Assembly: GCA_030390025.1 (NCBI GenBank)
Contig: CM059431.1
Location: forward strand, 129,334,001 to 129,398,000
DNA length: 64,000 nt
Reading direction: 5' to 3'
Origin: Squalus acanthias
Taxonomy: Eukaryota
The notes below the pieces were generated by a model. The model did no database searches, was not told where the DNA came from, and saw only the letters and a list, made by a program, of their open reading frames with translations. Below are positions 22 to 63,819 of this stretch, one piece after another. The position numbers and the translations under genes were made by a program. The first letter of the stretch is position 1. The number at the start of each line of letters is the position of its first letter.

Positions 22-2434
22 ATAGTTTTTTTTTAAATTCTTATCAACAGCTAGCATTGATGTGAACTTTATTCCTGTATTCAAGACGAAAGGCACAGAA
101 AACGAATGTGTAAGCAAGCCACATAATTTGGCCTGTGAGCATCAAACTAAAGAAAAAAGGTGTGAAATTACTAAGTACACAGAGTCTCACACTCTCAAGG
201 AGATTAGAAACAATAGAGACAATTTTAACTGTGGCTGCCTGGAAGAATAGGCCAGTAGCAGCTCGAGGATGTCATCGGCTCCCTTACTGCCCTCTTTATG
301 TTGGCAGATGGTTTCCATCCCAGGGTTTTGAAGGAAGTAGGTGAGCACATTGCAGATACCCTAACTATAATATTCCAAAGTTCTCTCGATTCAGGAACAG
401 TTCCTTTAAATTGGAAAATTGCTCATGTCACTCTGCTATTTAAGAATGGCGAGAGAGGGAAACCAGGAAATTATAGACCAGTTAGCCTTAACATCTGTTG
501 TCGGAAAATTGCTGGAGTCTATAATTAAGGATAGGATGACTGAACACCTCGAAAATTTTCAGTTGATCAGAGAGAGCCAGCATGGATTGTAAAAGGTAGG
601 TCATGCCTGACAAACCTGATTGAATTTTTTCAGGAGGTGACTAAATTAGTGGACAGGGGAATGTCTATGGATGTTATTTATACAGACTTCCAGCAGGCAT
701 TTGATAAAGTCCCACATAAGAGACTGTTAACTAAGGTAGAAGCCCATGGAATTAAGGTCAAATTATTGAACTGGTTAGGAAATTGGCTGAGCGGCAGGAG
801 ACAGAGTGTAAAGTTTCGCAATTATCGCGATTCAAAATAATAAGAGAGAAGCAGATTCGTTTGATCAGTTTTATTAAACGAAATGCTGTCCTGATAATAA
901 AGGACACAGAAGCCTGTAAAATGGCCGCCGAGCATCGTGGCAGAAGCTTCCAGAAACACAGTGGGCAGACAAGATGGCGTCGAATATACATTTAGTATAA
1001 GATTGGATCATACTCGGTAAACACTGATAAAGACAGGATGCAACCCGTTTGCATTTGGAACAATAGCAAAGATATAAGTGCTGGAATCGTTTTCCTATGC
1101 ACAGAAAGGATCATTGTACTGGGCAACCGAAGGCCCATCCAGACACATCAATACACAAATAACCCCCCGGCTCTACAATGAGAGAGACATTGACGGGTGA
1201 TTAAGCAAGTATTGGGGGGGCCCCAAAACCAGTCAGGGAGACGATTCATACACATCCTGGCTGGTCCAACAATGGGGAAAACATTAACGGATAGTTGGCC
1301 AGTCTCAGGTGCTACCGAAACCCGTTAAGGAAGATAAACGCCCCATGCTGGGAGTTTTGAGCGCCAATATTACACAAAGCACAAACATTAAGATTTGAGC
1401 GGGCGATAAGCGGACACATCACTATAATTATAGAGAACAAATGTCCATCGGTCTCTTATTCTCTTATCTCTCGGCGGACCCTTGCTGAAGCTCTTCCTTA
1501 GGGCTGGACTTTGTGTTTCTCTGGACTTTGTTGACTCTTGACTCTTAGCCGTACTGGTCGGTTATGCGAGTGTTGGGTGGAGCTCAATCGGAACGAGCCA
1601 CCCCGACAAGGGCAAGTAACAGGGTACACCATCCCGAGTGTCGGTAAACGGTGTCTGGACCCGGAGGCCCGAAGAGACGAGACGAGACGAGAAGAAGAGG
1701 AGAAGAATCCACGTGCCGCCACGGTCAGTAAACCCCGACCGCGCCCTAAAATATAAATAAAGAACTTTTCTTTGAGTTCTACCGACAACCTGTATCGAGC
1801 ACAGGAAGACTCTTCTTTGAACTGTGTCTGAGGTCCGTCGAGTTCTTCATGACAACAGGGAGTCTGGCCTGCTTTTCGCAGCAGCGAAAGTAAACAAGTG
1901 GGGTGCAGAGACCCTTCCAAACACGTGACAGTCAGGCGCTGCAGCGAAACGAGCCGAGTGCCTCACTTTAAAAATCTCCGAAGTAACACGAGTGGTGAGC
2001 ATGTTTTCCGATCCTACAAATCTAGACGTAGTGTAGGTATTGTTAAGGGAGGGTGGTTTTTAAGGTTAAGATATAATGGGGTAGAAATTAGGTCGCGTCC
2101 CATTTGGGGCGCAAATATCGTCCGCGCGCAAATATTAGCGCCTGGCGCTAATTATCGGCACTGACAGGAAACTTCACTTTTACCGCCCCGGGAGGTGAGT
2201 GGAGCGCTAAATTAGGCGCTGCACACCTCTCTTAAGGCGCAAAGGCCTAGGAGTGAGGCGCTACCTCAGCGCACGAGCGCAGCGCAGCTGCTGCCAGTTA
2301 GCGAGGGAACACAGACACACTGGCGCTGGACACTTCTTAAAGCGGGGGGGGCCACTTGCTCCCCAGCCACACCCTGCTCATTGCAGCCTTGAATCTCAGC
2401 CTGGAGAGACCTGTAATCCATTTTGCTGCCAAGC

Positions 2435-4290
2435 ATGGAGAGGGTGAGAGAACGCGCTCATCGCTTCACCGAGCGGGCCTTGGATGCTCTGGTTGACGCA
2501 GTGGAGCGCAGACGATGCATGCTGTTCCCGGAGAGTGGCAGGAGGCCTTTGCCACGCGAGTTCAGAAGAGTGTGGAGGGAGGTGGCTCAGAGCGTCTCCT
2601 CCAGGAGCATGGTGCCCAGGACCCATGTTCAGTGCCGCAAAAAGTTCAACGACCTCACTCGGGTCGTCAGGGTGAGTGGCTTTTTCTCAATACCTCTCCA
2701 TCCCTCCATCTCAACCTCACTCTATGGCCAGAGGGTCTTAAAACCCCAATGCACAACACTCATGCAACACCTATGGCCCTTTCATCAAACACACACACAC
2801 ATTCCACACTTTGCATACAGTAAGGGCTATTCACCTATGGGAGGCACATCAGGCAAGACCATGGCTGTATATTGACTCAGATGCTGTCCTTTTTCTTGCA
2901 GGCTAAGCTGGCTCATAATCGGAGACAGCAGCAACGGACGGGTGGAGGGTGGCTTCAGCTGCAACCCCTCAGCGATCTGGAGGAGCGCGTCCACAGGATT
3001 GTGGCAAGCCGGGTGATCGGTCCCGTCGCCACTGGAGACGCCGACCCCGTTGTGGACAGCAATGGTAAGGTCATCACCTTTTTGTCCTCTGTCCTTCCAC
3101 TTGTCCCTCACAATACCAGCCTTTGACACTTTCAATCCAACTTGCTAACTCGCTGCACTTATTCCTCCCTTACTGCCACCCTGTCCTCACGCTAAAGCCA
3201 CTCTTGTACCTCCCTGCTTTCAGATGGTGATTCACCAGCTGAGGAGATGGTCCCTGAAGCTGCCACTGGGAGTGATGCTGCAGCTGAGGAGGAAGAGGAA
3301 GCCGGAGCATCAGTGCCACCCTCTCCCGAGGAAGCCCATGGCCACACTGGGAACACGCCTTCCCCGGAGGGGAGCAGGGGGGAAGGGGCTGATGATGGTG
3401 AAGTTCCAGGACCCAGCGGGCTGCAGCAACGCCATTGGGGGGGGAGGGAAGAACGGGGGAGCAGGGGGGAAGGGGCTGATGATGGTGAAGCTCCAGGACC
3501 CAGCGGGCTGCAGCCACGCCATGGGGGGGGGAGGGAAGAACGGGAGCCTTCTCCCCAGAGGGAGAGTATGCCAGACACTCCTAATGCAATGGACGCAGAG
3601 GAGGAGCGGCTGATTGCAGAAATGAACAGCCAGGCGGTGGGCATGCACACTGAGCTCATGGGTGCAGTGGGAAGGGTGCCCGAATGCATTGAGGCACTGG
3701 CAAGGAGTGTGGAGCACTTCGCTGTAGCACAGGCGGATGCCACACTAAAGCTTAGTGCTGCAATTCAGTCACTGGCTGCCAGGAACCCATCTGAGACTGC
3801 TCTCATGCAGACTCAGATTGAGGCCACGCGAGCACTGACTGCTGCCATCCTTGATGGTTCGTGCACATGTCCCCGGGGCTGTCACCGCGCCGCAGCAGGC
3901 CAGCAATCTGTTCTCCGGCAAATTGCTCCGGATGCTGAAGTGCTGCCCCGTGGGAGTGCCAGTGTGTCGGGCGAGCAGGGAGTTGCTGTCCTCTCTCACG
4001 ATGACAGCATTCCTGCTGCCAACACTGTCACTTCTCCACTGCACTTGCCACCGCCTGTAGGACAGACTGCTGCCGCCCATGCAGAGTTGGTGCAGTCTGC
4101 AGCCGGGCCCTCCAGGCCCAGAAGTGGTCGAGGCCGTCCTTCAGGGGCATCTGCAGTGTCAGGGTCTGACAAGCAGCAGCCTTCCACCAGCCTTGCTGCA
4201 GCCACTGAGGTCCCATTACGGAGGAGCAGTAGGGTTAGAAGGGGGGAAGTGCGCAAGGGAAGGAGATCACCCTCGAAGGGCAAAAAGTAG
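2435..4290 (+). CDS. Myb/SANT-like DNA-binding partner protein of Harbinger (NAIF1/MSANTD-like); exons 2435-2671, 2902-3064, 3224-4290; ~488 aa
   Basis: RFTERALDALVDAVERRR...WREVAQSVSS...RTHVQCRKKFNDL; donors GTGAGT (2672) and GTAAGG (3065), acceptors TTTTCTTGCAG and TGCTTTCAG; spliced phases give one open frame (1467 nt) joining ORFs 2423, 2872 and 3247. Confidence 0.9.
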
Positions 4291-4584
4291 GAGGTGTGCC
4301 AAAATGCTGGTCATTTTTTTATTAAAGGCCGAGGTTCATGGCCCAACTTTTGTTTAGTGTTTTGGACATTATCTCCAGGTTGTGAGAACCAGTTATGTTA
4401 TTGACTGTTTTTTTGTGTTTATTTCTATGAGTTTGTCATGAGGAATTGACACACACAGAGTTTGTACAATAAATAAGTTTCTGTATTCAAAATATACATG
4501 GCTGGTGGTTGGAATTATTGGTGCCTTGGCCGGCTTAGGGGTTGCGTGCTGGGTTGATTCGTGTTTGTAGCACTGGCAGGGGCC

Positions 4585-5745
4585 CTAGAAGCGACTTGCT
4601 ATTAGTCGTTGACGGACGGCCCTTGCAGTTTGACCATTGTGGGCCGCCCTCCTGCCTTGGTGCTGCTGCTGATCATCGTCCTCGGCCTGTTCCTCCTCTT
4701 CCTCCTCCTCCTCTTGTGGTGCTGCAAGGCCTGGTGGCATTGGCTGCGTCCTGAGGATTGCCATGTTGTGCAACATGCAGCACACCACTACGAATTTGGA
4801 AACTTGCTCAGGCGAGTACTGCAGGGCTCCTCCGGAATGGTCCAGACAGCGGAATCGTTGTTTGAGCACGCCGATTGTGCGCTCAATAATGTTCCTGGTT
4901 GCTTGTTGGCTTTCCTGGTACCGCAGCTCAGCAGGGGTGTTTGGCGCACGGAGCGGTGTCATCAGCCAGGTGCTCAATGCGTACCCCTTGTCCCCCAGAA
5001 GCCAACCAACTGGCTGATGCGGTGCCTCGAAAATTTCTGCCACAGTACTCTGGCGCAGGATGAAAGCATCGTGGCAGCTGCCCGGATAGTGGGCATTGAC
5101 AGCGAGAATCACCTGTCTGTGGTCACAGACCAACTGCACATTCAAGGAATGGAACCCCTTTCTGTTCCGGAACTCCTCTGCATTCTCTCGCGGAGCACGC
5201 AAAGCCACATGCGTGCAGTCAATGGCGCCCTGCACCATGGGGAAGCCCGCTACCCTCGCAAAGCCCATAGCACGGTCATGCTGCTTGTCTGGGGTCATAG
5301 GGAAGGAGATGAAGTCTCGTCTCCTTGTGAAGAGGGCATTGGTGACCTGCCGGATGCAGCGATGCACCGCAAACTGGGAGATATTGGCGAGGTCCCCAAC
5401 AGCAGCTTGGAATGAGCCAGTGGCGTAGAAGTTCAAGGCCACTGTGACCTTCACTGCCACCGACAGAGACGTCCTGGACCTCAGCTGAGGCTGCAGATCT
5501 GGCTGCAGCAGGTGGCAGAGCTCAGTGACCACCTCCTTGCTGAATCGCAGCCTTCGCAAACACAGCTCCTCGGACATGTGGATGTAGGAGAGCTGTTCAC
5601 GATATACCCTGGGAGGGTAAGCTCTCCTGTACATGCGCCTGATGGCCCTCCTCCGTCTGGCCATCATTGCCACTCTCTGTCTGCGTCTCACTATCCTCCG
5701 ATTGAGCTGGAGCAGGACGACGCCCCCAATCATTGCAGCCCCCAT
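4585..5745 (-). CDS. Harbinger DDE transposase (HARBI1-like, DDE_Tnp_4 type), 386 aa, intact
   Basis: GAIDCTHV, NRKGFHSLNVQLVCD, YPGSCHDAFI, WLLGDKGY, RNIIERTIGVLKQRFRCL, CCMLHN; no stops or frameshifts. Confidence 0.96.
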   Translation of the reverse strand: MGAAMIGGVVLLQLNRRIVRRRQRVAMMARRRRAIRRMYRRAYPPRVYREQLSYIHMSEELCLRRLRFSKEVVTELCHLLQPDLQPQLRSRTSLSVAVKVTVALNFYATGSFQAAVGDLANISQFAVHRCIRQVTNALFTRRRDFISFPMTPDKQHDRAMGFARVAGFPMVQGAIDCTHVALRAPRENAEEFRNRKGFHSLNVQLVCDHRQVILAVNAHYPGSCHDAFILRQSTVAEIFEAPHQPVGWLLGDKGYALSTWLMTPLRAPNTPAELRYQESQQATRNIIERTIGVLKQRFRCLDHSGGALQYSPEQVSKFVVVCCMLHNMAILRTQPMPPGLAAPQEEEEEEEEQAEDDDQQQHQGRRAAHNGQTARAVRQRLIASRF

Positions 5746-5849
5746 ATTCTCTTTGCCAGAAAAGTAATGAGGTACAGCAACGAAAGTAGCAGCAAAGTTA
5801 GGATGAACTAGGCAAAACTACCTCACAAAGCGTTGAGTCAATGTAGAAG

Positions 5850-5887
5850 TCTCTCTCTCTCTCTCTCCGAATCTCTCTCTCTCTCTC
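5850..5887. repeat. (CT)n microsatellite in the transposase leader
   Basis: Interrupted CT run; shorter versions in both family A MITEs. Confidence 0.8.
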
Positions 5888-8406
5888 AGAACGAGTGGTG
5901 CATAAATGTCGACCACAGAAAAAGACAAGAAGAGGCCCCCTTTAAATAGCGCCCCCCCCCAGCCCCACACCGATTGATAACGTTCCAGTCTTCCGGTCGT
6001 TGGAAGCGCCAGGCGGTAAGGCAGGGGGCGCCACTCAATTTCCGCTCCGGGGCGCCCCAAGGGCGTTGCACCACGGAATGACGTCACAATCTGCGCGCGC
6101 AGGTGGTCGCAGCGGTAAGTTTTAGCGCCGCCGCACAATCTCAAGTTAAGTTCTCGAGCGGCGCAAACAGCGCTGCGCCCGGGCGTTAGCGCCTTAACGC
6201 CCCATTAGCCCCCTTTTAAGGCGCTAACGGGAGGCGCAACCAACTGAATTTTTACCCCAATGTGTTCCCCTTTCTATGATGTGTCGTGTGTTCTCCATTT
6301 CCATAGACCAAGCTTTATGAATGTATGTATACTTGTACTCTCTTTGATTTGCGCCTATGATATATATTTCATGATTTTAGACGTCATGCAATAAAGATTT
6401 CCATTTCGTACTATTCAACCGGGTCTATTTGAGTTTTTCTCTGCATTACTGCTCCCTGCATCTAAGTCCAGTGTTAGAACCGTAAGGGCGAGTGGGTCTA
6501 ACCACTCACAGGTGCTTATTGCAAAAAGGCTGGCCGGAGACCAGAGCAAGCAATAGTATTAGGCAACGAAGGCCTAACCTCGCACCAGCACCGTCTGAGA
6601 CAAGCCCCCTTACAAGAGAGTAGGGATAATGGGTAGGTACTCAAATTGGCAGGATGTGACTAGTGGTGTCCCACAGGGATCTGTGTTGGGGCCTCAACTA
6701 TTCACAGTATTTATTAACAACTCAGATGATGGCATAGAAAGTCATATGTCCAAATTTGCCGATGACACAAAGATAGAGGCCAGAATTTTGCCGTCGCTCC
6801 GCGGACAGGGTGGGTGGTGAATCAGCTGTTAAATTTAAAATGATTGACAGTGGGTCGGGAACCCGCTGTCAAAACGTGCAAACTGGACTTTCCTGATGTC
6901 GGGTCTGCCAGCGCTGAGCAGAAGACCCGACAGGCAGCAGCGGGGGAGGCAATTAAAATCATTAGTGGCTTGTTTACAGCCACTTATCAATGGTTTTTTC
7001 CCAGCTTTTTGGATTTGACAGGTCACCCACCAATTTCCCGCTATGCGTAGACCTCGTCTGTGAGGCTAAGGCGGGAGGTCAGTGGTCATTGAATCAGCTG
7101 ATGAGTTGACAGCTTCAAATGTCAAGTCAAAGCTCCCAGCTGATTGAGAAATGTTCCCTTAACCACTAGTTTCTCTAAACTGCATTTCCACTACAGATTC
7201 AGGATGTTGCAAGTCTTTACACAAGGTCCAGTCTGACCTCATTACCTCTCCCACCATTGACAGATCACTTCTGTCATCTCTACTTTACCTGCCATCTATT
7301 CCATCAGCATGCGTGCCCTTGAAACTCTCTCACATTGGTCCTCAGAATCCCACCATGATCAGTCCCAACACCAGCATCACCAGGCAGACCAGCAACACTA
7401 ACAACCACACCAACCTTCTCTGCAATCACCTGATGCTGCACAGGACACAGGGCATCAGCACCCAACCACATTGCTGCTTGGGAGGCCAGCAATGGTCTCA
7501 CCATGGCCAGATTTACTTCACTTGATGCTGTACACACTGGCTGCCACATGATGCGCCAGGTTGGCACCACCCCACACCAACATCATAAAACATCCCTACA
7601 ATGTCCAAGCCATTCCTTTCACACTTATCACCATTGCGGGGGGTACTGTTATGTCTCACTATTCACTGCAGCTCACTAAGCCACTTCCAAAGGTGCACAC
7701 AAATCTGTCCGCGAATGTAAAGTGTTGTAAATCAAGGTTTCAATGTTTTACACCACATTAACAGAAACTTTACATGAACATTGCATAAAACACCCAAGAC
7801 CCTACACTTGTATGTTGTTAGTTGGTATGATTGCACTAGGATGAGGGTGAATGTGAGGAGTGGCTAGTGAGATGGGGATGTGATAATGTAGATAGAGAGG
7901 GATGGGTGGAGGTGCAAGGTAAGTGGGTGAGTAAGGATTTGCAGGACTAGGATAAGGGTGAGGTGAGTGGTGGCTAGTGAGATGCAGAAGTGATAATGTG
8001 ATGGGGATGTGATGAGTGGCACAGCAGGATGAGGTTGAGTGTGGCTTCGTACTAACATTTCATGATCGACTGAGATCATTGAAACGTTTGCGGCACTACA
8101 CCCAGGTCCTCCCGATCACATCCCTGCTTGTGCCCTCCTCTGCAATGTGCAACCAGGCTGTGTTGATCTCCTGAGGAGGTCTCTTCCGCCCATAGGAAGG
8201 GAAGAAGACCTCCCTGCGTGCTGTGACTCCCTCCATCAGCATATGGAGGGAGTCATGGGAGAGCCTGGGTGCAGCCCTGCACCTCTGTGCAGTCATTGTC
8301 AGTGTTTGCAGCACCTCAATGCTGTAGTGCACTGACAGCACAAATGTCAAAAGAAAGTTGAGAGGTCGCACAACACCAGGTTATAGTCCAACAGTTTTAT
8401 TTGAAA

Positions 8407-8449
8407 TCACAAGCTTTCGGAGCTATCGATTTGCTCCTTCCTCAGGTGA
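8407..8449 (-). ncRNA. Minimal hammerhead ribozyme motif in Penelope pLTR
   Basis: Minus strand UCAC-CUGAGGA-A-GGAGC..GCUCC-GAAA-GCUU-GUGA: core, stem II, palindromic AAGCUU, stem I UCAC/GUGA. Confidence 0.75.
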
Positions 8450-9498
8450 AGTAAATTAGATACAGAATCTCCAAAGCATATATAGATGGAAAACAAAGCA
8501 TGTGTACTTTACAATTGCAGACCAATAAATTAAATCATCCTGACTATCTGCCGAGGTGTGATAAAGTTAATTAAGTCAGCCAGGAAGGTACCACATCAAA
8601 GACATAGCAAGATACAACTGAGACAATGAGGTGTAGTGGCAGGGGTTCTAACGTGTCAAAAGCTGCCGTCTGTATGTAAAACGAAAAGCTTTAACATTTT
8701 TTTACTTTTTTACTGGGAAAATTTTTACTTTTTTACTGGGAATCACATCTGTGAACAAGCTAACGACGACTCGAGTCCGGATCACGTCATGTATCGTGAC
8801 ATAAACCCAAGATCCCGATTGAGACCGTCTTCATGAGTGCGGAACTTGGCTATCAGTTTCTGCTCGATGATTTTGCGTTGTCGTGTGTTTCTAAGGTTGC
8901 CTTGGAGAACGCTTACCCGCAGATCCGAGGCTGAATGTCCTTGACTGCTGAAGTGTTCCCCGACTGGGAGGTAACAATCGCCAGGCAGGATTGTTACCTC
9001 CCAGTCGGGGAACACTTCAGCAGTCAAGGACATTCAGCCTCGGATCTGCGGGTAAGCGTTCTCCAAGGCGACCTTAGGAAAACACGACAACGCAAAATCA
9101 TCGAGCAGAAACTGATAGCCAAGTTCCGCACTCATGAAGACGGTCTCAATCGGGATCTTGGGTTTATGTCACGATACATGACGTGATCCGGACTCGAGTC
9201 GTCGTTGGCTTGTTCACAGATGTGATTCCCAGTAAAAAAGTAAATTTTTTTTAAAGTTAATCGTTTTACATACAGACGGCAGCTTTTGACACGTTCGACC
9301 CCATGCGATTCCACCTCATTGTCTCAGTTGTATCTTGCTATGTCTTTGATGTGGCACCTTCCTGGCTGACCTGATTAACTTTATCACACCTCGGCAGATA
9401 AACAGTCAGGATGATTGAATTCAGTTGTCTGCAATTGTAAGTTACACATGCTTTGTTCTCTATCTATATATGCTTTGACGATTCTGTATCTCCTCACT

Positions 9499-9536
9499 TC
9501 ACCCGACGAAGGAGTTTTAACTCCGAAAGCTTGTGA
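9499..9536 (+). ncRNA. Minimal hammerhead motif (variant core CCGACGA)
   Basis: UCAC-CCGACGA-A-GGAGUU..AACUCC-GAAA-GCUU-GUGA. Confidence 0.6.
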
Positions 9537-10145
9537 TTTAAAATAAAACTGTTGGACTATAACCTGGTGTTGTGTGACCTCTCAATTTTGTCCACCCCAG
9601 TCCAACACCGGCATCTCCGCATCATGCCCTTTAAGAAAACCAGCTGATGACGCGTCATCAAATGACATCACGAGACCCGCTTCCTCTAATTGGCCGGGAA
9701 ACGCGCTGGGTAGGCTTAACAAGCCCAATCAAGGTAAATTCATTCTACAGAAAAGGGCTCGAGCCAGCAGCGGGGTCAGGACCAGCCACCGAAGTCACCT
9801 GCCACGGACCCACCAAGGTTCGTAAAATCGCGGCCAACGGCATCGTAGGCAGTGTAGATGAAAGCATAAAATGACAAAGGGATATCGATAGATTCAGTGA
9901 ATGGGCAAAACTGTGGCAAATGGATTTCAATGTAGGCAAAGGTGAGGTCATCCACTTTGAACTTAAAAAGGATAGAACAGGGTACTTTCTAAATGGTGAA
10001 AAGCTAAAAACAGTGGAGGTCCAAAGAGACTTGGGGTCCAGGTACATAGATTATTAAAATGTCATGAACAGGTACAGAAAAATAATCAAAAAGGCTAATG
10101 GAATGCTGGCTTTTATATCTAGAGGACTAGAATACAAGGGGGTAG

Positions 10146-18600: not shown

Positions 18601-20310
18601 ATTCACTCCCTCCACCACCGGCGCACCATGGCTGCAGTGTGTACCATCTACAAGATGCACTACAGCAACTCGCCAAGGCTTCTTCAGCAGCACCTCCCAA
18701 ACCCGCGACCTCTACCACCTAGAAGGACAAGGGCAGCAGGCACATGGGAATACCACCACCTCCAAGTACCCCTCCAAGTCACACACCATCCTGACTTGGA
18801 AGCATATCACCGTTCCTTCATCGTCGCTGGGTCAAAATCCTGGAACTCCCTTCCTAGCAGCACTGTGGGAGTACCTTCACCACACGGACTGCAGCGGTTC
18901 AAGAAGGCGGCTCACTACCACCTTCTCAAGGGCAACTAGGGATGGGCAATAAATGCTGGTCTTGCCAGCGATGCCCACATCCCATGAATGAATTTTTAAA
19001 AATGGAAGTGGTGGCCTACTCCATTAGCACACTTGTAGGCCCAACCATAATGCAGCCTCTGATGGCCGATGTCTCTGCTTCCATTGCAGCACAATCAGCA
19101 GCCACCCAACATCTGGGTGCTGCAGAGGAATCTTAGACTGCTGTCATGCAAGGTCAGGTTGCTGCAATGCAAGCTCAGACTGCTGCCATTATGGCTCTGC
19201 ATTCCAGTGTTCAAAGGGGCTTACAGGATGTCACAGCAGTCCAGCAGTCTGTCCTCCAACAGATTACTAGGATTGCTGAGGCGCCGCCCCTGGGGAGTGG
19301 CAGTGGCTCCATGGAGCACAAACCTGCTGTCCTCTCTCAGGATGACAGCATTTGTACTTCCACCACTGCCACTCCACCATTGCTCTTGCTGCTGCCTGTC
19401 AGCCAGCCAGCCTGGACTGCTGCCACCATGTCAAGGTGATGCAATCCGAAGCCGGGCCTTCCAGGCCCAGAGCTGCTCGAGGTCGTCCTCCAATGCCATC
19501 AGCAGTCTCCACCACTGAAAGTCAGCAGCCTGCCACCAGCCATGCTGCAGCCACTGGGGTAGCACTGCGTAAGAGCACTAGGATAGGCAAAGTCACACGG
19601 AAGACAGACACTAAGGAAATACACAAGGGTGATTAGTTTACTTTTGTATGCAATATGCCATGATTTCATTTATTAATTTGGTTTCGAATATTTACTTTGT
19701 GTTGGCTTTTAATTTTGCAATGTGGCCAAGCAGACACTGTGTTGGTCAGTAACAGAGGGAATGTAAGGTATGGGACTGTTGGTGAATGGGGAAGTGGGGT
19801 TGCATTTAGATTTACTGATATCACACGCGGATGAGTTCTTCACAGGCAGCCTGTCCAGAAAGGAGCTGTCTAGGTTGCCTCCTCCCTTCCTCTTACTCCT
19901 CCTGCTCCCTTCCTCTTCCTCCTCATGCTCATGTTCCTCCTGCTCCTCAGCTGCTCACCGTATAGCTGGTGGCAAGGGCTGTGTCCTCATGATGGTGAGT
20001 TTATGCACCATGCAGCAGACCACCACGAATCTTGACACCCACTCTGCTGAGTACTGCCGGGCTCCTCCAGAACGGTCAAAGCAGCGGAAGCGTTGTTTCA
20101 GCACACCAATGGTCTGCTCTATCACATTTCATGTGGAAGCATGGCTTTTATTGTATGCATGCTGCCCACGTGTGCGTGAGTTGCGCACCAGAGTCATGAG
20201 CCACGTCGTCAGTGGATAGCCCTTGTCGCCCAGTAGCGACCATTTGGTTTGCCGTGATGGCTCAAATGCAGACGGCACAGCAGACTGCCGCAGAAGGAAG
20301 GCAACATGAC
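15672..20310 (+). pseudogene. Decayed, truncated family B Harbinger: Myb remnants (exon 1 ~15950-16130; exon 3 ~16459-16910 and 19002-19636) and convergent transposase C-terminus (~19805-20310, minus)
   Basis: MHNEMLGALEGLPESL, AVLSQDDSI, GPSRPRAARGRP; WSLLGDKGYPLTTWLMT; left TIR GGTCATGATTTT; no right TIR. Confidence 0.85.
16911..19001 (+). mobile_element. Internally deleted APE-RT LINE of a second family (clade not assigned)
   Basis: APE motifs QQPDILILTESYL, GDFNVHH, SSDHRTV; RT start NYRPISLLS, AFDRVW; TSD ATGGAA at 16905-16910 and 19002-19007. Confidence 0.88.
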
Positions 20311-37450: not shown

Positions 37451-38183
37451 TGTCAATAACTCTGTCAACAAGGATTGAATATGATGTTGCTCACCCAAAT
37501 GTACACATGAGAGTTGGTTATAAATTTTCACTCCTTGGTTGGAAATTACACCACAGTAACAAAATATGCTTTTATAACTTTGATCACAATGATGATGACA
37601 ATCTAAGTGAGTTCATCTAATTCCAAATAGATTATATATATGTTCCCTGATAGCTTAACTAGTAGGTAGGTTTTCTATAGTGGTGCATCTGTACAGATAT
37701 AGTAGTTCAGTGACAAGTGTGATAGGGACATTTGCGATATTTAAGCATCAGATTGATTACTTTGATTTGAATAGGAAAGCTAGTCAGTGCTTCGTGGCTT
37801 TGTGATAATGTGCATCAGAATGATTCCTGGAATGTTACTCAAAATACTGGGAAACATTTGATTCATATTCTGCTTCAACTATTCCAGAATTTTAGACCAA
37901 ATAAGACAGAAAATAAAACTCTCTCTCCTGATATATTTACAGTACATTATTAGCAAATAATAACATTGTTCTAATACTATCAGTGATTTTCATTCTTATC
38001 TGTAAATTTTTTGTGCTTTGGGAAATATGAACTTCATTTTTCTTTCTCCATTGTGTACTCTATGAAACTGTACAGGGATGGTTTTGTAACTTTGAAGAAA
38101 ATTCAACATTCAGGGATTGAATAATTCATTGAAACATTTTTGTTTACATTTTTCCCATATTTTGTATGAAGCAGTTGTGCTGT

Positions 38184-39892
38184 CCCTCTCTACACCCCTT
38201 CACCTATCCACCTCCCTCTCTACACCCCTTCACCAATCCACCTCCCTCTCTACACCCCTTCACCAATCCACCTCCCTCTCTACACCCCTTCACCAATCCA
38301 CTTCCCTCTCTACACCCCTTCACCTATCCACCTCCCTCTCTACACCCCTTCACCTATCCACCTCCCTCTCTACACCCCTTCACCAATCCACTTCCCTCTC
38401 TACACCCCTTCACCTATCCACCTCCCTCTCTACACCCCTTCACCAATCCACCTCCCTCTCTATACCCCTTCACCTATCCACCTCCCTCTCTACACCCCTT
38501 CACCTATCCACCTCCCTCTCTACACCCCTTCACCTATCCACCTCCCTCTCTATAGCCCCACCAATTCACCTCCCTCTCTACACCCCTTCACCTATCCACC
38601 TCCCTCTCTACACCCCTTCACCTATCCACCTCCCTCTCTACACCCCTTCACCTATCCACCTCCCTCTCTACACCCCTTCACCTATCCACCTCCCTCTCTA
38701 CACCCCTTCACCTATCCACCTCCCTCTCTACACCCCTTTCACCTATCCACCTCCCTCTCTACACCCCTTCACCTATCCACCTCCCTCTCTATACCCCTTC
38801 ACCAATCCACCTCCCTCTCTACACCCCTTCACCTATCCACCTCCCTCTCTATACCCCTTCACCAATCCACCTCCCTCTCTACACCCCTTCACCTATCCAC
38901 CTCCCTCTCTCCACCCCTTCACCTATCCACCTCCCTCTCTATAGCCCTTCACCTATCCACCTCCCTCTCTACACCCCTTCACCTATCCACCTCCCTCTCT
39001 ATAGCCCTTCACCTATCCACCTCCCTCTCTACACCCCTTCACCTATCCACCTCCCTCTCTATAGCCCCACCTATCCACCTCTTTCTCTATACCCCTTCAC
39101 CTATCCACCTCCCTCTCTACACCCCTTCACCAATTCACTTCCCTCTCTACACCCCTTCACCAATCCACTTGCCCCTCTATACCCCTTCACCTATCCACCT
39201 CCCTCTCTACACCCCTTCACCTATCCACCTCCCTCTCTACACCCCTTCACCTATCCACCTCCCTCTCTCCACCCCTTCACCTATCCACCTCCCTCTCTAC
39301 ACCCCTTCACCTATCCACCTCCCTCTCTATAGCCCCACCTATCCACCTCTTTCTCTATACCCCTTCACCTATCCACCTCCCTCTCTACACCCCTTCACCA
39401 ATTCACTTCCCTCTCTACACCCCTTCACCAATCCACTTGCTCCTCTATACCCCTTCACCTATCCACCTCCCTCTCTACACCCCTTCACCAATCCACCTCC
39501 CTCTCTATAGCCCTTCACCTATCCACCTCCCTCTCTCCACCCCTTCACCTATCCACCTCCCTCTCTACACCCCTTCACCTATCCACCTCCCTCTCTATAG
39601 CCCCACCTATCCACCTCTTTCTCTATACCCCTTCACCTATCCACCTCCCTCTCTACACCCCTTCACCAATTCACTTCCCTCTCTACACCCCTTCACCTAT
39701 CCACCTCCCTCTCTATACCCCTTCACCTATCCACCTCCCTCTCTACACCCCTTCACCTATCCACCTCCCTCTCTATAGCCCTTCACCTATCCACCTCCCT
39801 CTCTACACCCCTTCACCTATCCACCTCCCTCTCTACACCCCTTCACCTATCCACCTCCCTCTCTATAGCCCTTCACCTATCCACCTCCCTCT
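38184..39892. repeat. 30-bp minisatellite (CCCTCTCTACACCCCTTCACCTATCCACCT)n, ~57 units
   Basis: Directly visible tandem array with 268-bp higher-order periodicity in its right half. Confidence 0.97.
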
Positions 39893-40061
39893 TCTTCTTT
39901 AAGACCCTCCATAAATCCACTTCTTTGACCAAGTTTTTATCCACCTCTCTTAATATCACCTCTGTTGGCTCAGCCTCCATTATCTTGTTTACGTCTCCGT
40001 GAAGCAACTTGGACATTTTTCTACATTAAATTTAGTATCTAATTATAAGTGCTGTTGTTGT
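39893..40061 (+). mobile_element. Old L2 3' end contiguous with the minisatellite
   Basis: TTTAAGACCCTCC...CTTTGACCAAG...GTTGTTG aligns to the reverse complement of 58470-58650. Confidence 0.7.
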
Positions 40062-55535: not shown

Positions 55536-56729
55536 GAATACAGAGAGTGCAGAATAGAACTGAAAGAGGAAATAAAAGTGCAAAAAGAACATATGAGAAA
55601 ACATGAATGGGTAACATAAAAGGGAACTCTAAAGTCTTTTATAAACATTTAGGGGTAAAAGGATAGTCAAAGGAAAGGTGGGGTTGATTAAGAACCTAAA
55701 TGGAAATCCTCCTGTGGAGGCAGAGGGCATGGCTAAGGTACTTAATGAATACTTTACATCTGTCTTCACTTAAGAAGAGGATGCTGCCAATGTTACAGTA
55801 AAGAAGGAGGGAGTAGAGAAATTGGAGAGGATGTACTTAAACCATTGGCAGTGCTCAAAGTGGAAAAGTCACCAGGTCTAAATGGGATGCCTCCCCAGTT
55901 ACTGAGGGAAGTAAGTGTGGAAATAGCTTTGGCCATAATCTTTCAATCCTCCTTGGATATGAGAGTGATGCCAAAGAACCGGAGGTTTGCAAATGTTACA
56001 CGCCTGTTCAAAAAATGGGAGAGAGATAAACTAGATAACTGTAGGCCAGTCAGCCTAATGTCAGTGGTGGAAAAACTTCTAGAGACCATAAACCAAGACA
56101 AAATTAATTGTCACTTGGAAGAACATGGGTTAATAAATGACAGCCAACATGGATTTGTTAAAGGCAAATCATGTCTGATTAATTGAGTTCTTTGATGAAA
56201 TAACAAAGAGGGTTGATGAAGGTAGTGTAGTTGATTTTATGAATATAGGGGGAGAAATTAGGCACCTTAGCGCCTCCCGTTAGCGCCTCCGGGGGGCACT
56301 AACAGGGCGCTACCGGCTTTGCAACCGGGCATGGTGATAGAAAAGCGCCCACGAAATTGAAGTGGAGGTTTGCGGCAGTGGTTACCACTAGTGCCATGCT
56401 CTCCTGCAGCTGGAGATCGTGATGTCATCCAGGTGCGCAGCGCCCCAGCTCTGAAATTCACTCTCGCCCCCTGCCTGAGCACGTGTCATTAGCAACAACA
56501 GGTAGCGGAGGTGGAATGCTGTCGGATGAGCGCTGAGGGAACGCTATATAAAGGCGTCAACTTCCGTTTTATTTTTAGTTGGCAAAGAATGCTGCCTTGT
56601 CAGTTTGACAAAAGCAAACAGGCGTTTTGAGCGATTTGAGCGTTCTCAACTTGAAGGAGTTTTCTGGCTGAGAAAAATTTATCACTTTCATTTGGGTTAC
56701 ATTTGATGGCGCAACATTTCCCTCATTTA

Positions 56730-57848
56730 ATGGGGGCTGTACTGGCACTGGAACTCGCCCTCCAGCGTCACCGTCGGAGGCAGCGAAGGCAGAGAGAAAG
56801 ATTGCAAAATGTGGCCAGAGTGAGGAGGGCCAACAGGGCTCTCAACAGGAGGCCTTACCCTCCCAGCGTATTCCAGCAGCATTTCTCCTACATCAATTTA
56901 ACTGAGGAGCAGTGTCTTAGAAGGCTCCGCTTCACCATGGACATGGTCACAGAGCTCTGCCACCTCCTGCAGCCAGACCTCGAGCCTCACATCAGGAGCA
57001 CCATGGCTCTCTCAGTGGCAGTCAAGGTCACCGTCGCCCTCAATTTCTACGCCAGCAGATCCTTCCAGTGTGCAACAGGAGACATATCTAACATATCACA
57101 GTTCGCCGTCCATTGCTGCATCCTTGAAGTCACAGATGCTCTCTACAGGAGGAGAAGGAGTACATTTCCTTCGCCATGACCAGAGAGAAGCAGCGCGAGC
57201 GTGAATGTGGATTTGCCAGGATAGTGGGCTTCCCCATGGTGCAGGGCGCCATTGACTGCACCCACATCGCTTTGCGGGCACCTCATAACAATCCTGAGGT
57301 ATTCTGTAACCACAAAGGCTACCACTCACTTAATGTGCAGTTGGTGTGCGACCACATCCTGCGGCAGACCAGTGTGCCAGCACTCTTCCAGACACCACAT
57401 CAAGCTAGCGGATGGCTGCTGGGAGACAAGGGCTATCCGCTCTCCACCTGGCTCATGACACCCCTCCGCAACCCCAGCACTCATGCCCAACATTCATTAA
57501 ATGAGAGACATGCTGCCACCAGCAACATCATTGAGCAGACCATCGGAGTGCTCAAGCAACGGTTCCGCTGTCTTGACCGCTCGGGAGGAGCCCTCCAGTC
57601 CTCGGCTGAGTGGGTGTCCCTTTTTGTTGTCGTCTGCTGCATGCTGCGCAACTTGGCCATCATGAGGGCGCAGCCATTGTCATCAGGCATAGCCGCACAA
57701 CCTCAGGAGGAGGAAGAGGAGGACGAGGACGAGGATAAGAAGGAGGAGGAGGAACAGGAGCACAAACATCAGTGACAGATGAGGCCGCCACTCAAAGCCT
57801 TGTGGAAGGGTGGTCCGTGACCTCCTCATCAGACTTCGGTTCCAATGA
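56730..57848 (+). pseudogene. Harbinger transposase pseudogene
   Basis: Colinear with 4585-5745; frameshift near 57160, 19-codon deletion (VCDH|ILRQ) removing the YPGSCHD motif, stop at 57773. Confidence 0.92.
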
Positions 57849-58009
57849 ATTGGAGGCCACTTCCCGGTTGCTCAGCACGTCCCCATCATTCCATCAATTT
57901 CTCATTCCATACCACACCCCAAAGCTGAAATGAGACACAGCCCCAAATCTGCAACATTCCAATAATAAATTTATCCAAATTCAGCAACCACATATATACA
58001 ACAACAATA

Positions 58010-60737
58010 TTGACAAATCACCCTTGTGCAAACCCTTACTTGCCCTCTTTACAGTGCCTTTCCCTAATCTACTGCTCCTATGTAGTGTCTCCCCAGTGGC
58101 TGCAGCAGGGCTGGTGGAAGGCTGCTGAGTGTCAGTGCCAGAGACTACAGATGGCCTTGCAGGATGCCCTCGACCAGCTCTGAGCCTGGACGGCCCGGCT
58201 GTAGACTGCACCACCTCAGGCTGGGTGGTGGCAGTCTGGGCTGGCTGGATGACAGGCAGTGACAAGTGCAATGGCGGAGTGGCAGTGGTGGGATCAGGAA
58301 TGCTGTCATCCTGAGAGAGGACAGCAGGTTCCTGCTCCACTGACCCACTCCCACTCCCCCGGGGCAGCACCTCAGCATCCTTACCAATCTGCTGGAGCAC
58401 AGATTGGTGGGCTGCTGCGACGCCGTGAGATCGCCGGTGGATTGTGGTGGACCAGCAGCAATGGCAGCAACAACAACAACTTGTATTTATATAGCGCCTT
58501 TAACGTAGTAAAACGTCCCAAGGCACTGCACAGGAGTATTATAAGACAAAAAATTTGACACCGATCCACATAAGGATAAATTAGAGCAGGAGACCAAAAG
58601 CTTGGTTAAAGAGGTAGGTTTTAAGGAGCGTCTTAAAGGAGGAAAGAGAGGTAGCGAGGCGGAGAGGTTTAGGCCGGGAATTCCAGAGCTTAGGGCCTAG
58701 GCAATAGAAGGCACGACCACCAAAGGTTGAGCGATTATAATCAGGGATGCTCAGGAGGGCAGAATTAGAGCAGCGTAGATATCTTGGGGACGTTGTGGGG
58801 CTGAAGGAGATTACAGAGATAGGGAGGGGCGAGGCAATGGAGGGATTTGAAAACAAGGATGAGAATTTTGAAATCGAGGCGCTGCTTAACTGGGAGCCAA
58901 TGTAGGTCAGCGAGCACAGGGGTGATGGGTGAACGGAACTTGGTGCGAGTTAGGACACGGGCAGCCGAGTTTTGGATGACCTCAAGTTTACATAGGGTGG
59001 AATGTGGGAGGCTGACCAGGAGCGCGTTGGAATAGTCAAGTCTAGAGGTAACAAAGGCATGGATGAGGGTTTCAGCAGCGGATAAGCCGAGGCAAGGGCG
59101 ACGACGGGCGATGTTACGGAGGTGGAAATAGGCGGTCTTAGTTATGCCATGGATATGTGGTCGGAAGCTCATTTCAGAGTCAAATATGACACCAAGGTTG
59201 CAAACAGTGTGGTTTAGCCTCAGACAGATGTTAGGGAGAGGGATGGAGTCAGTGGCGAGGGAACGGAGTTTGTGGTGGGGACCGAAAACAATGGCTTTCA
59301 GCAGTCAAAGCTTTCACGGCATCAAGCTGAGACTGCATGAGAGCAGTCTGAGACTCGATGCCACCAACCATTGCCTGCATTACAGCACTAAGACATTGCG
59401 TCACTTCCGCCTGTGCTGCAATGGAAGCTGCCACATCACCCATGACATGCGTCATGAGGTCTGGATCCGCACGGTCTCTCTGGGAGTCCACTATCCTCTG
59501 CACAGTGGAACTGATGGGCTCCATGGTGTGCGCAGAGCTCTGTGCAATGTTGGAGGTGGACACCTCCACGCTCCTTACCATTGCCAAGAGGCTCTCGGGC
59601 ACCCTTGCAATTGCACCTATCATCTCGATGTGCATGGCCATCACCCTTCTTGTGATCATTTCCCCATTGAGGTCCTCATCTGAGTCCTGTGCAGCAGAAC
59701 TCACACAAACTCGCCCTCCGGGGAGCTGGCTCCTGAGCTAACCTTTCGCCCTGGACTTGCTGCAGCCCGCTCGTCCCTGGTGCATCACCCTGTGCAGACC
59801 CCTCTACTAAACTTGCCTCTAAAGATCACGTAGTGCCAGTATCTGAGGTGGTGCCTGCGGGTGAGAGATGCAGTGACGCGGTGTTTTGCTCCTCCTCCTC
59901 TTCTCCTTCCTCACCCTCAGTGTGGGGCTCAGGGATAGGCTGGTCATCTGGTTGCTGATTCTCTGAAAGCATAAAAGCACAAGATTCGCGTTAAGGTGAG
60001 GGAAGGGAGGCAGGAAGGGAGCAAGTAATGCAGACAGTATCAGGAGCTGGAAAGTGGGAAAGGCTTGTGGTGTGAGGGGGAAGTGGGATGAGAGAACGAG
60101 AGGGGATGAAGATACCGTTGTTGCCTCCAAGGGGGTCGACGTTGCCGACGGCCACACCGCCCACCACCTGCTGCCGAATGAGTCGCAGCACTCGCTCCTC
60201 CAGGTCTGAAAGCTGCTGGAGCTGCGCATCACCCCCGCCTGTTCTCTGCTGCTCCCTCCTATCTTAGCCTGCAAGAGAAACGAATGTTTGTGAGTCAGAG
60301 TCCAGCTATGTGTTTGGGAGATATTCCTGCCGTAGTTGAATAGCTGTGATTGTAGGCAAGGCGTGAGATGTGGATGTGAGTTTGAGTAGGTGCAGATGCT
60401 TGGTGGGTGAGTGGTGAGGGTGTGGTGGTTTGTGCATTTTGTACAGACTGAGGTTCAGATGCTGGTATGTAGGATCTGTTGAAGCATGTGCTCACCTTGA
60501 CCACCCGAGTGAGGTCGTTGAATTTCTTCTGGCACTGTGTCAGGTTGCATACGACCACACTACTGGCCGAGACCTCCTGGGCCACGTCCCTCCACATTGC
60601 CTGAGGAACTGGGGCAATGGCCTCCTTCCAGTGTCTGGTAACTGCACTGCTCTCCTTCGCTCCACTCCCGCAACCAATGCCTCCAATGCCTCGTCCATGA
60701 AGCGACGAGCTCTGTCCCTGGGAGTGGGATCAGCCAT
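58010..60737 (-). pseudogene. Three-exon Myb/SANT pseudogene interrupted by L2
   Basis: MADPTPRDRARRFMDEALEAL, QCQKKFNDLTRVVK|GTGAG, MHIEMIGAIARVPESL, AVLSQDDSI; frameshifts. Confidence 0.88.
58470..59298 (-). mobile_element. 5'-truncated L2 LINE
   Basis: HAFVTSRLDYSNALL, LHWLPV; (TTG)n tail; possible CAGCA TSD. Confidence 0.92.
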
Positions 60738-61759
60738 CACGATCAGGGGATTGAGTTCCTTGCAGGTCGCCTTCACAGCCATCAATGCTGATAATGAGGA
60801 TCTGCACAATGATGCAACCTCCCCTTTAAGAGCTGGAAGGGGCCAGTGTGAAGGATCATTCCTGATTGCACAGCACCTGAAATTCATTATCGCCCTGCTG
60901 GTAGCGACCCTGTAGCGCCCTGCTTAGGTCATTAGCGCTTGATTTACCACTCCAGCTCTTTCCAGGAGCACTAGAAGCCAATTTAGGGAAACCTCAGACT
61001 CACTAGCGCCTGGCGCTAATTTTTCACGATTTCAAAATTTAGCACCCTAAACAGGGCGATACCGAATTTCTCCCCCACAGTCTTTCAAAAGGTGTTTGAT
61101 GAAGTGCTATATAAGAGATTATTAGCAAAATTCAAGCCCATGGGAGTAAAGGAGCAGTGGCAGCGTGGATAAGAAATTGGCAGAGACAGAAAGTGGAGAG
61201 TAGTGGTAAACGGTTGTTTTTTGGACAGGATGGAAGTATAGAGTGGTGTCCCCCAGGGGTCGGTATTAAGACCACTGCTTTTTTTGATATATAATAATGA
61301 TCTGGACTTGGGTACACAGGGCATAATTTCAAAGTTTGCAGATGACACAAAGCTTTGAAATGTAGTAAACAGTGAGGAGGAATGCAGCAGACTTCAGGAG
61401 GACATAGACAGACTGCTGAAATGGACAGACACATGCCAGATGTAATTTAATGCAGAGAAGTGTGAAGTGATGCATTTTGGAAGGAAAAATGATGAGAGGC
61501 AATATCACCTAAATGGTTTACATGCACAAATCTTTAAAGGTGGCAGGACAAGTTATTAAAGCTATTAAAAATGTATACGGGATCCTGGGCTATGTAAATA
61601 GAGGCATAGAGTACAAAAGCAAGGAAGTTATGCTAAATCTTTATAAATCACTGGATAGACCTCAGCTTGAGTATTGTGTCCATTTCTGCTCCTCCTCGGC
61701 CTTCAAAGAAACACCAGCCAGCTGCTCGCCCATTCGAGGCCCTCCCCTCTCCCAGGGAT

Positions 61760-62610
61760 CACCTCCATCCCAGTTACTGCATGAGGACCTGCAGCTACTG
61801 TCATCTACTCTGTCTGCGGCTATGAAGAAACGTCTGCACTCGACGTTTACAGCGCCAAGTCATTTCACAAAACCATGGGAGATCTCTGCAATATCAGCCA
61901 GAGTGCAGTATGGGGATTTATCTGTCAGGTGACTGATGTACTTTTAAGGAGACCTGGGTAATTAATTCAGTTTGGCATCACAACAAGTCAGCAAGATAGG
62001 ACCATCCAGATTTACGGGGTTGCTGCTTTCCCAAGGTTCAGGGTGCAATCAATGGCACCCGCATTGTGTAGGAGCTCCTACAATCAATTTCCTTGATTTT
62101 CTCAAACAGAAAGGACTTCCACTCCTTGAATGTACAGACTGTCGGGTTGATTTTCACTGTAAGTCGTCGATCAGCTGTCAATTGGGCAATTGGGCGGCGT
62201 ACATAACAGACAGCCAATCTGCTATTGCCAGTTTTTCCACCACTACCTAAAGTGAAAATCTAACCCTGTATGTGGCAATATACAAAGAATCCTACACATC
62301 AATGCGCGATTTACTGGAGGTTACCACAGGTCATTCATCCTTTGGAATTCGGCTATCCCTGACCTCTTCGAAAATCATGACAGCAGATCATGCCACCTAC
62401 TCCCAGGGACAATGACCCTATTAAGAGTTGCCCAAAGAGCAGGAGAGGAGCTCTACACTAAGGCAAATGTCTCGACTAGAATGATCATCAAGAGGATCAT
62501 TGGGGTCTTAAAAGGGTACCGTAAGTGCCTCAACATGTTGGGAGGGTCTCTGCTGTATGCTCCAGCTCATGTATCTGACATAGCTGTACCCTGAGTTGTA
62601 TTGAAAAAGC
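61760..62610 (+). pseudogene. Old Harbinger transposase remnant
   Basis: GDLCNISQ, FPKVQGAI-like segment, IIKRIIGVLK...GGSLLYAP. Confidence 0.7.
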
Positions 62611-62926: not shown

Positions 62927-63819
62927 GGGGTAGAAATTCGGTATCGCCCCGTTTGGGGCGCAATTATCGGCCGGGCGCAAAGATTAGCGCCTGGCTCTAA
63001 TTATCGCCACCGACTGCAAACTTGACTTTTATCGCCCCTGGAGGTGATTGCAGCGCTAAATCAGGCGCTTCACACCTGTCTTAAGGCGCAAAGGCCGAGG
63101 AGCGAGGCGCTACCTCAGAGCACTGGCGAAGCTCATGTAATGTCAGTCAGCAATGGAACACACACACAATGGCACGGGCCAGTTCTTAAAGGGGAGGGTT
63201 AATCTTGCTTTCCATCCACATCCTGCTCATTGCAGCCTTGAATCTCGGCCTGGAGAGACCTGCACATCAAATGTGCTGGAAAGAACAATGGAGAGTACCA
63301 GGCAAAGAGCTCAGAGTGCAGCCCCCACAGTCTCTGCTAAATCGATACAAGGAATGGCAAATCAAAATGAATCTGCAAAGTGCTGCTCAGTACCCAAAAC
63401 TCCTTCACACAGCGTTGAATCTCTCTAGAAGTCTCTCCCTCTCTCTCTCAGAATGCGTAGTTCAAAAATGGCACCAACAATAAAAGGCAGGAAGCGGTCA
63501 CCTTTAAATAGCGCTCCCCCTTTCCCTTCATAACTGCAGAACGCTCCCCTCAACCTGTTGTTGCTCGCGTCAGGCGGTAAGGCAGGGGGCGCCACTCAAT
63601 ATCCGCTCCGGGGCGATACCGGGGCGTTGCGCACTCGAGTGACGTCATGATCTGCCGGCGCAGGAGATCGTGGCGGTAGTGTTTAGCGCCGCCGCAAAAT
63701 GTCTAGTTAATTTCGCGAGCGGCGCAAACTTCGCCGCGGCTGGGCGCTAGATGCTTTGCGCCCCATTAGCGCCCTCTTAAGGCGCTAACGGGAGGCGCAA
63801 CCAACTGAATTTTTCCCCC
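62927..63819. mobile_element. Family A MITE (893 bp)
   Basis: TIRs GGGGTAGAAATTC / GAATTTTTCCCCC; TSD TAT on both sides. Confidence 0.93.

Follow-up and report, generated by a model that had tools for sequence, protein, structure and literature searches.

An intact Harbinger transposon, probably competent for cut-and-paste, from a large family of successive subfamilies in Squalus acanthias

Structure of the element

The window analysed here, a 64,000-nucleotide stretch of Squalus acanthias contig CM059431.1, carries at positions 2078 to 6258 a Harbinger transposon with two convergent genes, one encoding a DDE transposase and the other a Myb-like protein (Table 1). Every testable defining feature of an autonomous PIF/Harbinger is present. 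An earlier reading of the letters alone, called the sequence-only reading below, had proposed an apparently intact and possibly active element, and on most points of anatomy our analysis bears it out. Both terminal inverted repeats (TIRs) were found, and they agree in 11 of 12 bases; their 12-bp length is below the 25-50 bp given as usual in PMC9179366. The TIR pattern has 11 matches in the 64-kb window against 0.56 expected. The exact AAT target-site duplication is real, since 8 of 11 sister copies of the host long terminal repeat (LTR) present the empty site with a single AAT. The element also lies, as proposed, at the top of a three-level nest, inside an LTR-like repeat that is itself inside a CR1-type fragment of a long interspersed nuclear element (LINE). 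To judge by its ends the repeat is presumably an LTR, and the reverse transcriptase match of the enclosing fragment (RVT_1, E 3.1e-6) is under Pfam's cut-off. A further claim, that CpGs are abundant, survives mainly for the ends: the observed/expected ratio is 1.02 in the right end (5746-6258), but only 0.56 over the element as a whole, against 0.40 over 6259-64000. Each of the top 7-mers of the repeated subterminal motif occurs six times in the two ends and not at all in 2435-5745; by analogy with the zebrafish element Harbinger3_DR, these repeats are predicted to bind the Myb protein (PMC9710019). The three hexamers between the genes may serve as poly(A) signals.

The transposase frame is unbroken over 386 codons, matches Pfam, and retains all three catalytic residues. 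This triad is conserved in 88 of the 90 aligned family rows, and the self score of the protein is reached by 79 of 107 scored genomic matches. A structure model of the transposase has a pLDDT (predicted local distance difference test) of 90.2, and its top fold matches are DDE transposases, namely piggyBac (Z 9.7, root-mean-square deviation (rmsd) 5.3, 231 residues aligned) and Tn5 (Z 9.2, rmsd 6.0, 238 aligned). A sequence search of PDB with the transposase returned no transposase and three weak unrelated matches, and a Foldseek search with the model returned nothing at E 0.001 or better.

The Myb-like gene likewise conforms to the earlier proposal, its exons joining through four canonical splice sites with introns in phases 0 and 1 to give 488 amino acids (aa) free of stops. 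These splice signals are retained in older subfamilies and in most of the displayed sister families, which are about 70% identical. A joint removing exactly intron 2, the predicted junction 3064/3224, was found in three of four RNA-type runs, whose RNA nature is guessed (none is recorded as RNA among the listed holders) and whose contigs lose rare variants. An 87-bp in-frame tandem duplication in exon 3 (3369-3542) is a mark of the young subfamilies (488 versus ~459 aa); a third unit raises the length to 517 aa in some copies, and older copies have the unit only once. In intron 1, the number of tandem copies of a 54-bp unit (near window 2812-2865) ranges from one to several between elements that are otherwise nearly identical. 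The private R96W change of the window copy falls at a position that is R in all 89 family rows with a readable codon and variable in 16 sister-family rows; damage to the Myb protein is neither shown nor excluded. We rejected read-through of intron 1 as a conserved alternative product, as the stop differs between the young and old majorities. A search for longer Myb relatives gave one protein.

Table 1. Features of the Harbinger element and of its surroundings in the 64,000-nucleotide window.
Feature	Position	Strand	Evidence
Host solo-LTR-like repeat, ~1.6 kb without insert, TGT..ACA, AGAG duplication, within CR1-type LINE fragment	807..6614	.	
Left target-site duplication (AAT)	2075..2077	+	Sequence; one AAT at empty sister LTR sites, 8/11
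Left TIR, 12 bp	2078..2089	+	Sequence
Left subterminal region; predicted promoter and 5' untranslated region (UTR) of the Myb-like gene; repeats of a TTAGCGCC-type motif, predicted to be bound by the Myb protein	2090..2434	+	
Myb-like gene exon 1, ATG 2435, Myb/SANT domain	2435..2671	+	Pfam PF13873 (Myb_DNA-bind_5), E 1.3e-9
Intron 1, GT..AG, phase 0	2672..2901	+	Splice signals
Myb-like gene exon 2, private R96W change at 2950	2902..3064	+	
Intron 2, GT..AG, phase 1	3065..3223	+	Joint in RNA-type contigs
Myb-like gene exon 3 with stop codon; C-terminal tail basic (nuclear localisation predicted)	3224..4290	+	
Convergent 3' UTR region; poly(A)-signal-like hexamers 4468 (+), 4318 and 4418 (-)	4291..4584	.	
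DDE transposase gene, 386 aa, D176/D226/E288	4585..5745 (frame 5745..4585)	-	Pfam PF13359 (DDE_Tnp_4), E 4.6e-38
Transposase 5' UTR, predicted promoter, right subterminal region, CpG-rich, motif repeats	5746..6246	-	
Right TIR	6247..6258	-	Sequence
Right target-site duplication (AAT)	6259..6261	+	Sequence
Related non-coding miniature inverted-repeat transposable element (MITE), 876 bp, duplication AGA/AAA	10730..11605	+	78-83% to both ends
Older decayed two-gene Harbinger, sister family 66-78% alike, frameshifted, split by LINE piece	56248..61076	-	
Related non-coding MITE, 893 bp, exact TAT duplication	62927..63819	+	78-83% to both ends

Size and condition of the family

A 23-nt transposase motif has 5,886 exact matches in the genome and an 18-mer from the left end has 9,122, with none for either in the reversed control. 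We sampled the first 100 motif matches in genome order, all from 57 Mb of one contig (C1) and selected for an intact motif. Both ends are present in 92 of these copies, 71 of which have an exact 3-bp duplication, as do 25 of the 28 readable top loci. The transposase alone is open in 64 of the 92; 32 of the 92 have both frames unbroken together with intact splice sites, and both frames are open in 26 of the 30 top-ranked loci. Extrapolation gives ~5,400 full-length copies (0.6% of the 3.71-billion-base genome), ~1,900 of them with both genes open, figures that rest on that single 57-Mb sample and on copies with an intact motif. The window copy is an ordinary member of a large family, not a rare one, and the hallmarks of a domesticated gene of the HARBI1/NAIF1 type (single copy, no TIRs or target-site duplication, constraint in place) are absent.

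The left-end matches outnumber the full-length copies expected, and large internal deletions occur in DNA contigs; because of these two observations the family likely includes thousands of its own non-autonomous derivatives. A degenerate form of the transposase motif has 3,613 further matches, and most of the 40 fetched belong to sister families whose transposases are 67-77% alike. Three pairs of neighbouring copies (L098/L100, L099/L101 and L118/L119) lie 5-32 kb apart and are sisters in the tree, two of the pairs with matching flanks; these are local segmental duplications, not transpositions.

A succession of subfamilies

The sampled copies do not radiate from a single star; they form a nested series. 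In a set of 90 rows, from which three copies from the duplicated pairs were dropped, the old majority (29 copies) and the young majority (19 rows, including the window copy) differ at 207 diagnostic sites, 179 of which are compatible with one step, with at most three misfits among the 90 rows. Private changes become fewer as the share of young states climbs (rho -0.78, p 2e-19); from the youngest bin to the oldest, private substitutions per site amount to 0.09, 0.15, 0.21, 0.25 and 0.39%. The two MITEs of the window, used as outgroups, set the polarity: each has 26 sites in the old state, against nine and eight in the young. Among the 40 further loci obtained with the degenerate motif, five are still older rungs, with transposases 85-88% alike and mostly old states. 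In a tree that includes these older rungs, side branches of at least four tips hold 10 transposase changes, against 217 on the backbone, and the length of backbone over which the lineage renewed itself is ~0.21 substitutions per site. We conclude that the family is one continuous succession of subfamilies, like that of mammalian LINE-1 (L1), in which subfamilies succeed one another in a single lineage.

Selection and rate of change along the backbone

The transposase evolved differently on the backbone and in the inserted copies. Backbone changes number 36 nonsynonymous to 40 synonymous, a ratio of nonsynonymous to synonymous rates (dN/dS) of 0.28, whereas private changes number 184 to 57, a dN/dS of 0.99 (p 4e-6). 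Mapping on the tree gives 104 to 113 on the backbone and 289 to 127 on the tips (dN/dS 0.28 versus 0.70, p 2e-7), the tip counts being inflated by recombination. Purifying selection thus acts on the transposase along the backbone, and its evolution is neutral once a copy is inserted. The published pattern for vertebrates is the opposite: across 307 genomes surveyed, DNA transposons are described as neutral inside genomes and reliant on horizontal transfer, and as having no route to cis-preference, with exceptions allowed (PMC7070016).

The backbone is also fast. A relative-rate test rejects the clock for 29 of 29 old copies (p <=1.2e-10), with a mean of 164 derived sites in the window copy versus 46 in each old copy. 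Young copies are 1.8-3.0 percentage points farther than old ones from each of five outgroups; for the outgroup locus L205, which has 166 old states and 25 young, the distances are 10.5% and 7.5%. The net change of the lineage is 3.4% (166 minus 25 sites), to be set against an age difference of 0.3-0.55%, so the backbone changes ~6-11 times faster than inserted copies age. In the recent segment the introns do not share in this: they have 4 changes in 389 bp versus 3-7% elsewhere (p 0.005), and young and old copies are equidistant to all five outgroups, with no excess in five of five comparisons. Transversions make up 125 of 207 changes on the backbone and 373 of 881 private ones (p 3e-6).

Recent mobility

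None of the three outcomes that the sequence-only reading named as refuting it was obtained: not all copies have diverged, a sister site is unfixed, and one of the junctions was seen spliced. We scored 40 of 2,212 and of 3,141 candidates in two nearest-copy searches. The window copy belongs to the second-youngest subfamily and differs from the majority of its set by 8 substitutions. A younger subfamily exists, in which one of 24 copies equals the majority sequence.

At the window's own site a polymorphism test was uninformative, as the flanks are a high-copy LTR with both empty and independently filled sisters. We therefore turned to the sister copy L014, which is 18 substitutions from the window copy, encodes an identical transposase, has low-depth flanks, and was picked since those flanks have no matches among the fetched DNA; four DNA runs were compared. 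In run X2, whose organism code matches that of the best holder, one contig of 622 nt connects L014 positions 976-1497 with 5685-5784 through a single triplet, a precise empty allele, and the flank letters of X2 show 3 differences in 944. Thus the one unique-flank locus tested is not fixed. The empty allele may be the pre-insertion state, not an excision product. These observations support recent mobility of the family.

In run X10 (organism D), the element of L014 was found as single contigs at a depth of ~20, the unique flanks having no cover, and several alleles are almost missing from organisms A and B. Contig depths proved too noisy for dating the subfamilies by comparison with organisms B and D.

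Proposed mechanism and alternatives

We interpret the element at 2078-6258 as an intact, full-length, two-gene Harbinger, one of a very large family that moved recently, and predict that it is able to transpose by cut and paste. We consider this account, together with the origin of the ladder set out below, probable. By analogy with Harbinger3_DR, the Myb protein would bind the repeated subterminal motif and bring the transposase into the nucleus, and the DDE enzyme would cut at the 12-bp TIRs. Insertion would be into a palindromic target of ~17 bp, with duplication of its central three, mostly A/T, bases. Most copies would be silenced, and the few unsilenced at any one time would be both the source of protein and the substrate. 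This identity would couple a functional transposase to its own copying, and so allow selection in cis. Variants that evade sequence-specific silencing would then found the next subfamily, and escape from silencing is the cause that we favour for the fast backbone.

Several results weigh against this account, or against its extension to the present. The Myb gene has a dN/dS of 0.66-0.69, not significantly under the private rate (p 0.17-0.32), and the deficit of intron changes does not hold over the whole tree (p 0.92), 389 bp being little sequence. The other junction predicted by the sequence-only reading, 2671/2902, does not appear in the 12 joints listed for the RNA-type contigs, two of which continue through the donor of intron 1. 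Of the in-element differences listed for these contigs, 26 of 28 are old-subfamily states, so the contigs do not show expression of the youngest subfamilies. Evidence for the empty allele comes from a single sister locus, where one contig of depth 2.6 shows it. No identical pair of copies was seen among the 19 and the 24 copies nearest to two young queries, where the minimum is 7 and 2 substitutions, and the private allele of the window copy that was tested occurs once in the genome, so that no assembled daughter carries it. At the rate published for the epaulette shark, another species (7e-10 per generation, with a pi of 0.002; PMC10587355), divergence of 0.1-0.2% corresponds to 1.4-2.9 million generations, and near-identity is therefore no proof of current movement.

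There are two ways to see the present state of the family. That its proteins are competent for transposition seems to us a good bet; that it is transposing today falls a little short of an even chance. The suggestion of a possibly active native Harbinger is thus upheld as to intactness and recent mobility, and its present activity is unproven. The contrary possibility is that the family is dormant or extinct, its copies kept intact by a slow shark clock, its last wave at least a million generations old, and its polymorphic sites old segregating insertions. This too we place slightly on the doubtful side of even. It would account for the lack of identical pairs, for a youngest set centred near 0.1% from its majority and for the old alleles that dominate the RNA-type contigs, and the epaulette shark values would make coalescence as deep as the youngest wave. 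It has to contend with the existence of a subfamily younger than the window's, in which both frames are open in 21 of 24 copies, and with a lineage that renewed itself along such a length of backbone; moreover, with no more than 40 candidates scored in each search, very recent copies could have escaped notice. Dormancy bears on present-day activity alone and is compatible with the anatomy. The strongest form of our interpretation, a vertically persistent and still active L1-like master lineage with a cis-selected transposase, exons and ends that outrun the host clock many times over in escaping sequence-specific silencing, and introns that keep host time, we regard as unlikely.

The ladder itself could have other origins. 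If gene conversion had brought in the backbone differences from older Harbinger families or sister ones, intermediates would be mosaics and the low dN/dS would be a legacy of ancient divergence. Two copies (L096 and L117) are visibly mosaic, neighbouring diagnostic sites share a step more than by chance (0.31 versus 0.12 within 3 bp, p 0.0035), and young alleles are the majority among the 40 sister-family loci at 35 of 123 sites. Yet the clustering is weak, which argues against sister-family import as the main source even though mosaics exist; donors 70-75% alike would give dense tracts, none of which is seen, the nearest older rungs (such as L205) have mostly old states, and age climbs steadily along the ladder. 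We find this origin quite unlikely. In another history, an unsampled reservoir host that evolves faster would have supplied the element again and again by horizontal transfer, one rung per wave, and so have produced both the ladder and the purifying selection; selection during such transfer is how the literature explains conserved transposases (PMC7070016). At least half of the element's words are present in runs that carry six organism labels, and the X10 alleles nearly absent from organisms A and B fit such a history. We nevertheless consider it very unlikely: the best 64 of the 120 transposase relatives listed are all from sharks or rays and at most 66% identical, there is no close non-elasmobranch relative among those 120, and the steps of the ladder are many and small. 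The clock-like introns also argue against it, as a faster host clock would speed them too, and they argue equally against error-prone excision or gap repair as the process that makes the backbone fast in each round without selection for sequence change. Gap repair is mutagenic, and the transversion-rich backbone points to a process different from that in private changes; repair, however, copies introns as well as exons, and error-prone repair alone does not explain a dN/dS of 0.28. We give it little credence. That the intact frames are a domesticated gene pair or an assembly artefact has practically no chance of being correct: databases do name all such proteins 'putative nuclease HARBI1', but the copy structure refutes the idea, with thousands of dispersed copies in differing flanks and duplications, neutral change after insertion and an empty allele.

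Relation to known systems

Harbinger3_DR and its derivative Harbinger3N_DR of zebrafish share with the present element the pair of DDE and Myb-like genes, short TIRs, a 3-bp duplication, a repeated subterminal motif and a palindromic target (PMC2836001, PMC3016246, PMC9710019). The target of Harbinger3_DR is AAACACCWGGTCTTT (PMC3016246), and in the form AAACAC-CWG-GTCTTT it resembles the flanks of the family described here. This likeness is one of described features, and there are differences: Harbinger3_DR was rebuilt from a consensus, whereas native open copies exist here, and its central triplet is CWG, whereas ours is A/T-rich and degenerate. In Harbinger3_DR and Ping/Pong both proteins are required, and the Myb protein binds the ends and the transposase (PMC2836001).

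The sequence-only reading implied a first native vertebrate Harbinger. This implication is weakened by Harbinger-Snek of sea kraits, which likewise underwent mass expansion, has 269 intact copies in L. colubrina and RNA over both genes, and 'may still be transposing' (PMC8437027). It differs in being a sharp burst after horizontal transfer, as opposed to a long ladder whose nearest protein relatives are elasmobranch; in the available portion of PMC8437027 there is no mention of 'purifying' or of a selection test. The Harbingers of coelacanth and newt are also high-copy vertebrate elements with evidence of transcription, in other lineages (PMC9179366, PMC5741667). Native intact vertebrate Harbingers are therefore already known, and the anatomy here is standard. 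What is new is the single L1-like ladder, the purifying selection on a transposase within one genome, and a backbone faster than the clock of its copies. Mammalian LINE-1 shares the pattern: its protein is conserved along the active lineage, through cis-preference, and evolves neutrally once copies are inserted. The likeness is only one of evolutionary pattern, LINE-1 being a retrotransposon whose proteins bind their own RNA (PMC7070016). The literature listings that we searched, without Repbase and Dfam, describe neither this family nor any DNA transposon of sharks that forms a ladder within one lineage.

PMC9179366 reports none of these elements in the elephant shark and called for other cartilaginous fish to be examined, a gap that the present family fills. 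The slow shark clock preserves each rung, so the question of how DNA transposons persist becomes directly testable. Native two-protein transposases with a target preference of ~17 bp would allow work on mechanism, structure and tool building without reconstruction and, if the master-lineage interpretation is true, the native open copies of this target-specific transposase would number in the hundreds to thousands.

Insertion sites and surroundings of the element

A profile from 71 insertion sites is palindromic over ~17 bp, with a degenerate, A/T-rich central triplet. The sister host LTRs are 96-98% alike across 1750-2077, and the three that are not empty have Harbinger-type inserts; with the window's own, the same position is filled in 4 of 12 LTR copies. 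At the window's exact insertion base, in opposite orientation, L032, L033 and L041 have an 80% MITE, a 99% copy and a 96% copy respectively. Thus the window's insertion base in the host LTR is a target hot spot.

The two MITEs of the window, with ends ~20% diverged, are plausible substrates for transposition. In addition to the older two-gene element listed in Table 1, decayed Harbinger-like pieces lie at ~6775-8340, 19130-20237, 48171-48327 and 61700-62600, with a Myb-like match at 8067-8110 and frames resembling transposases; old Harbinger insertions thus lie densely in the window. Elsewhere in the window, 38001-40000 has an extreme negative GC skew of about -0.9 and is probably a simple C/T-rich repeat. 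Positions 8354-9589 hold a large, near-perfect inverted repeat with arms up to 98% complementary and 9 nt apart; it has no Pfam match and presumably resembles a Penelope-type end.

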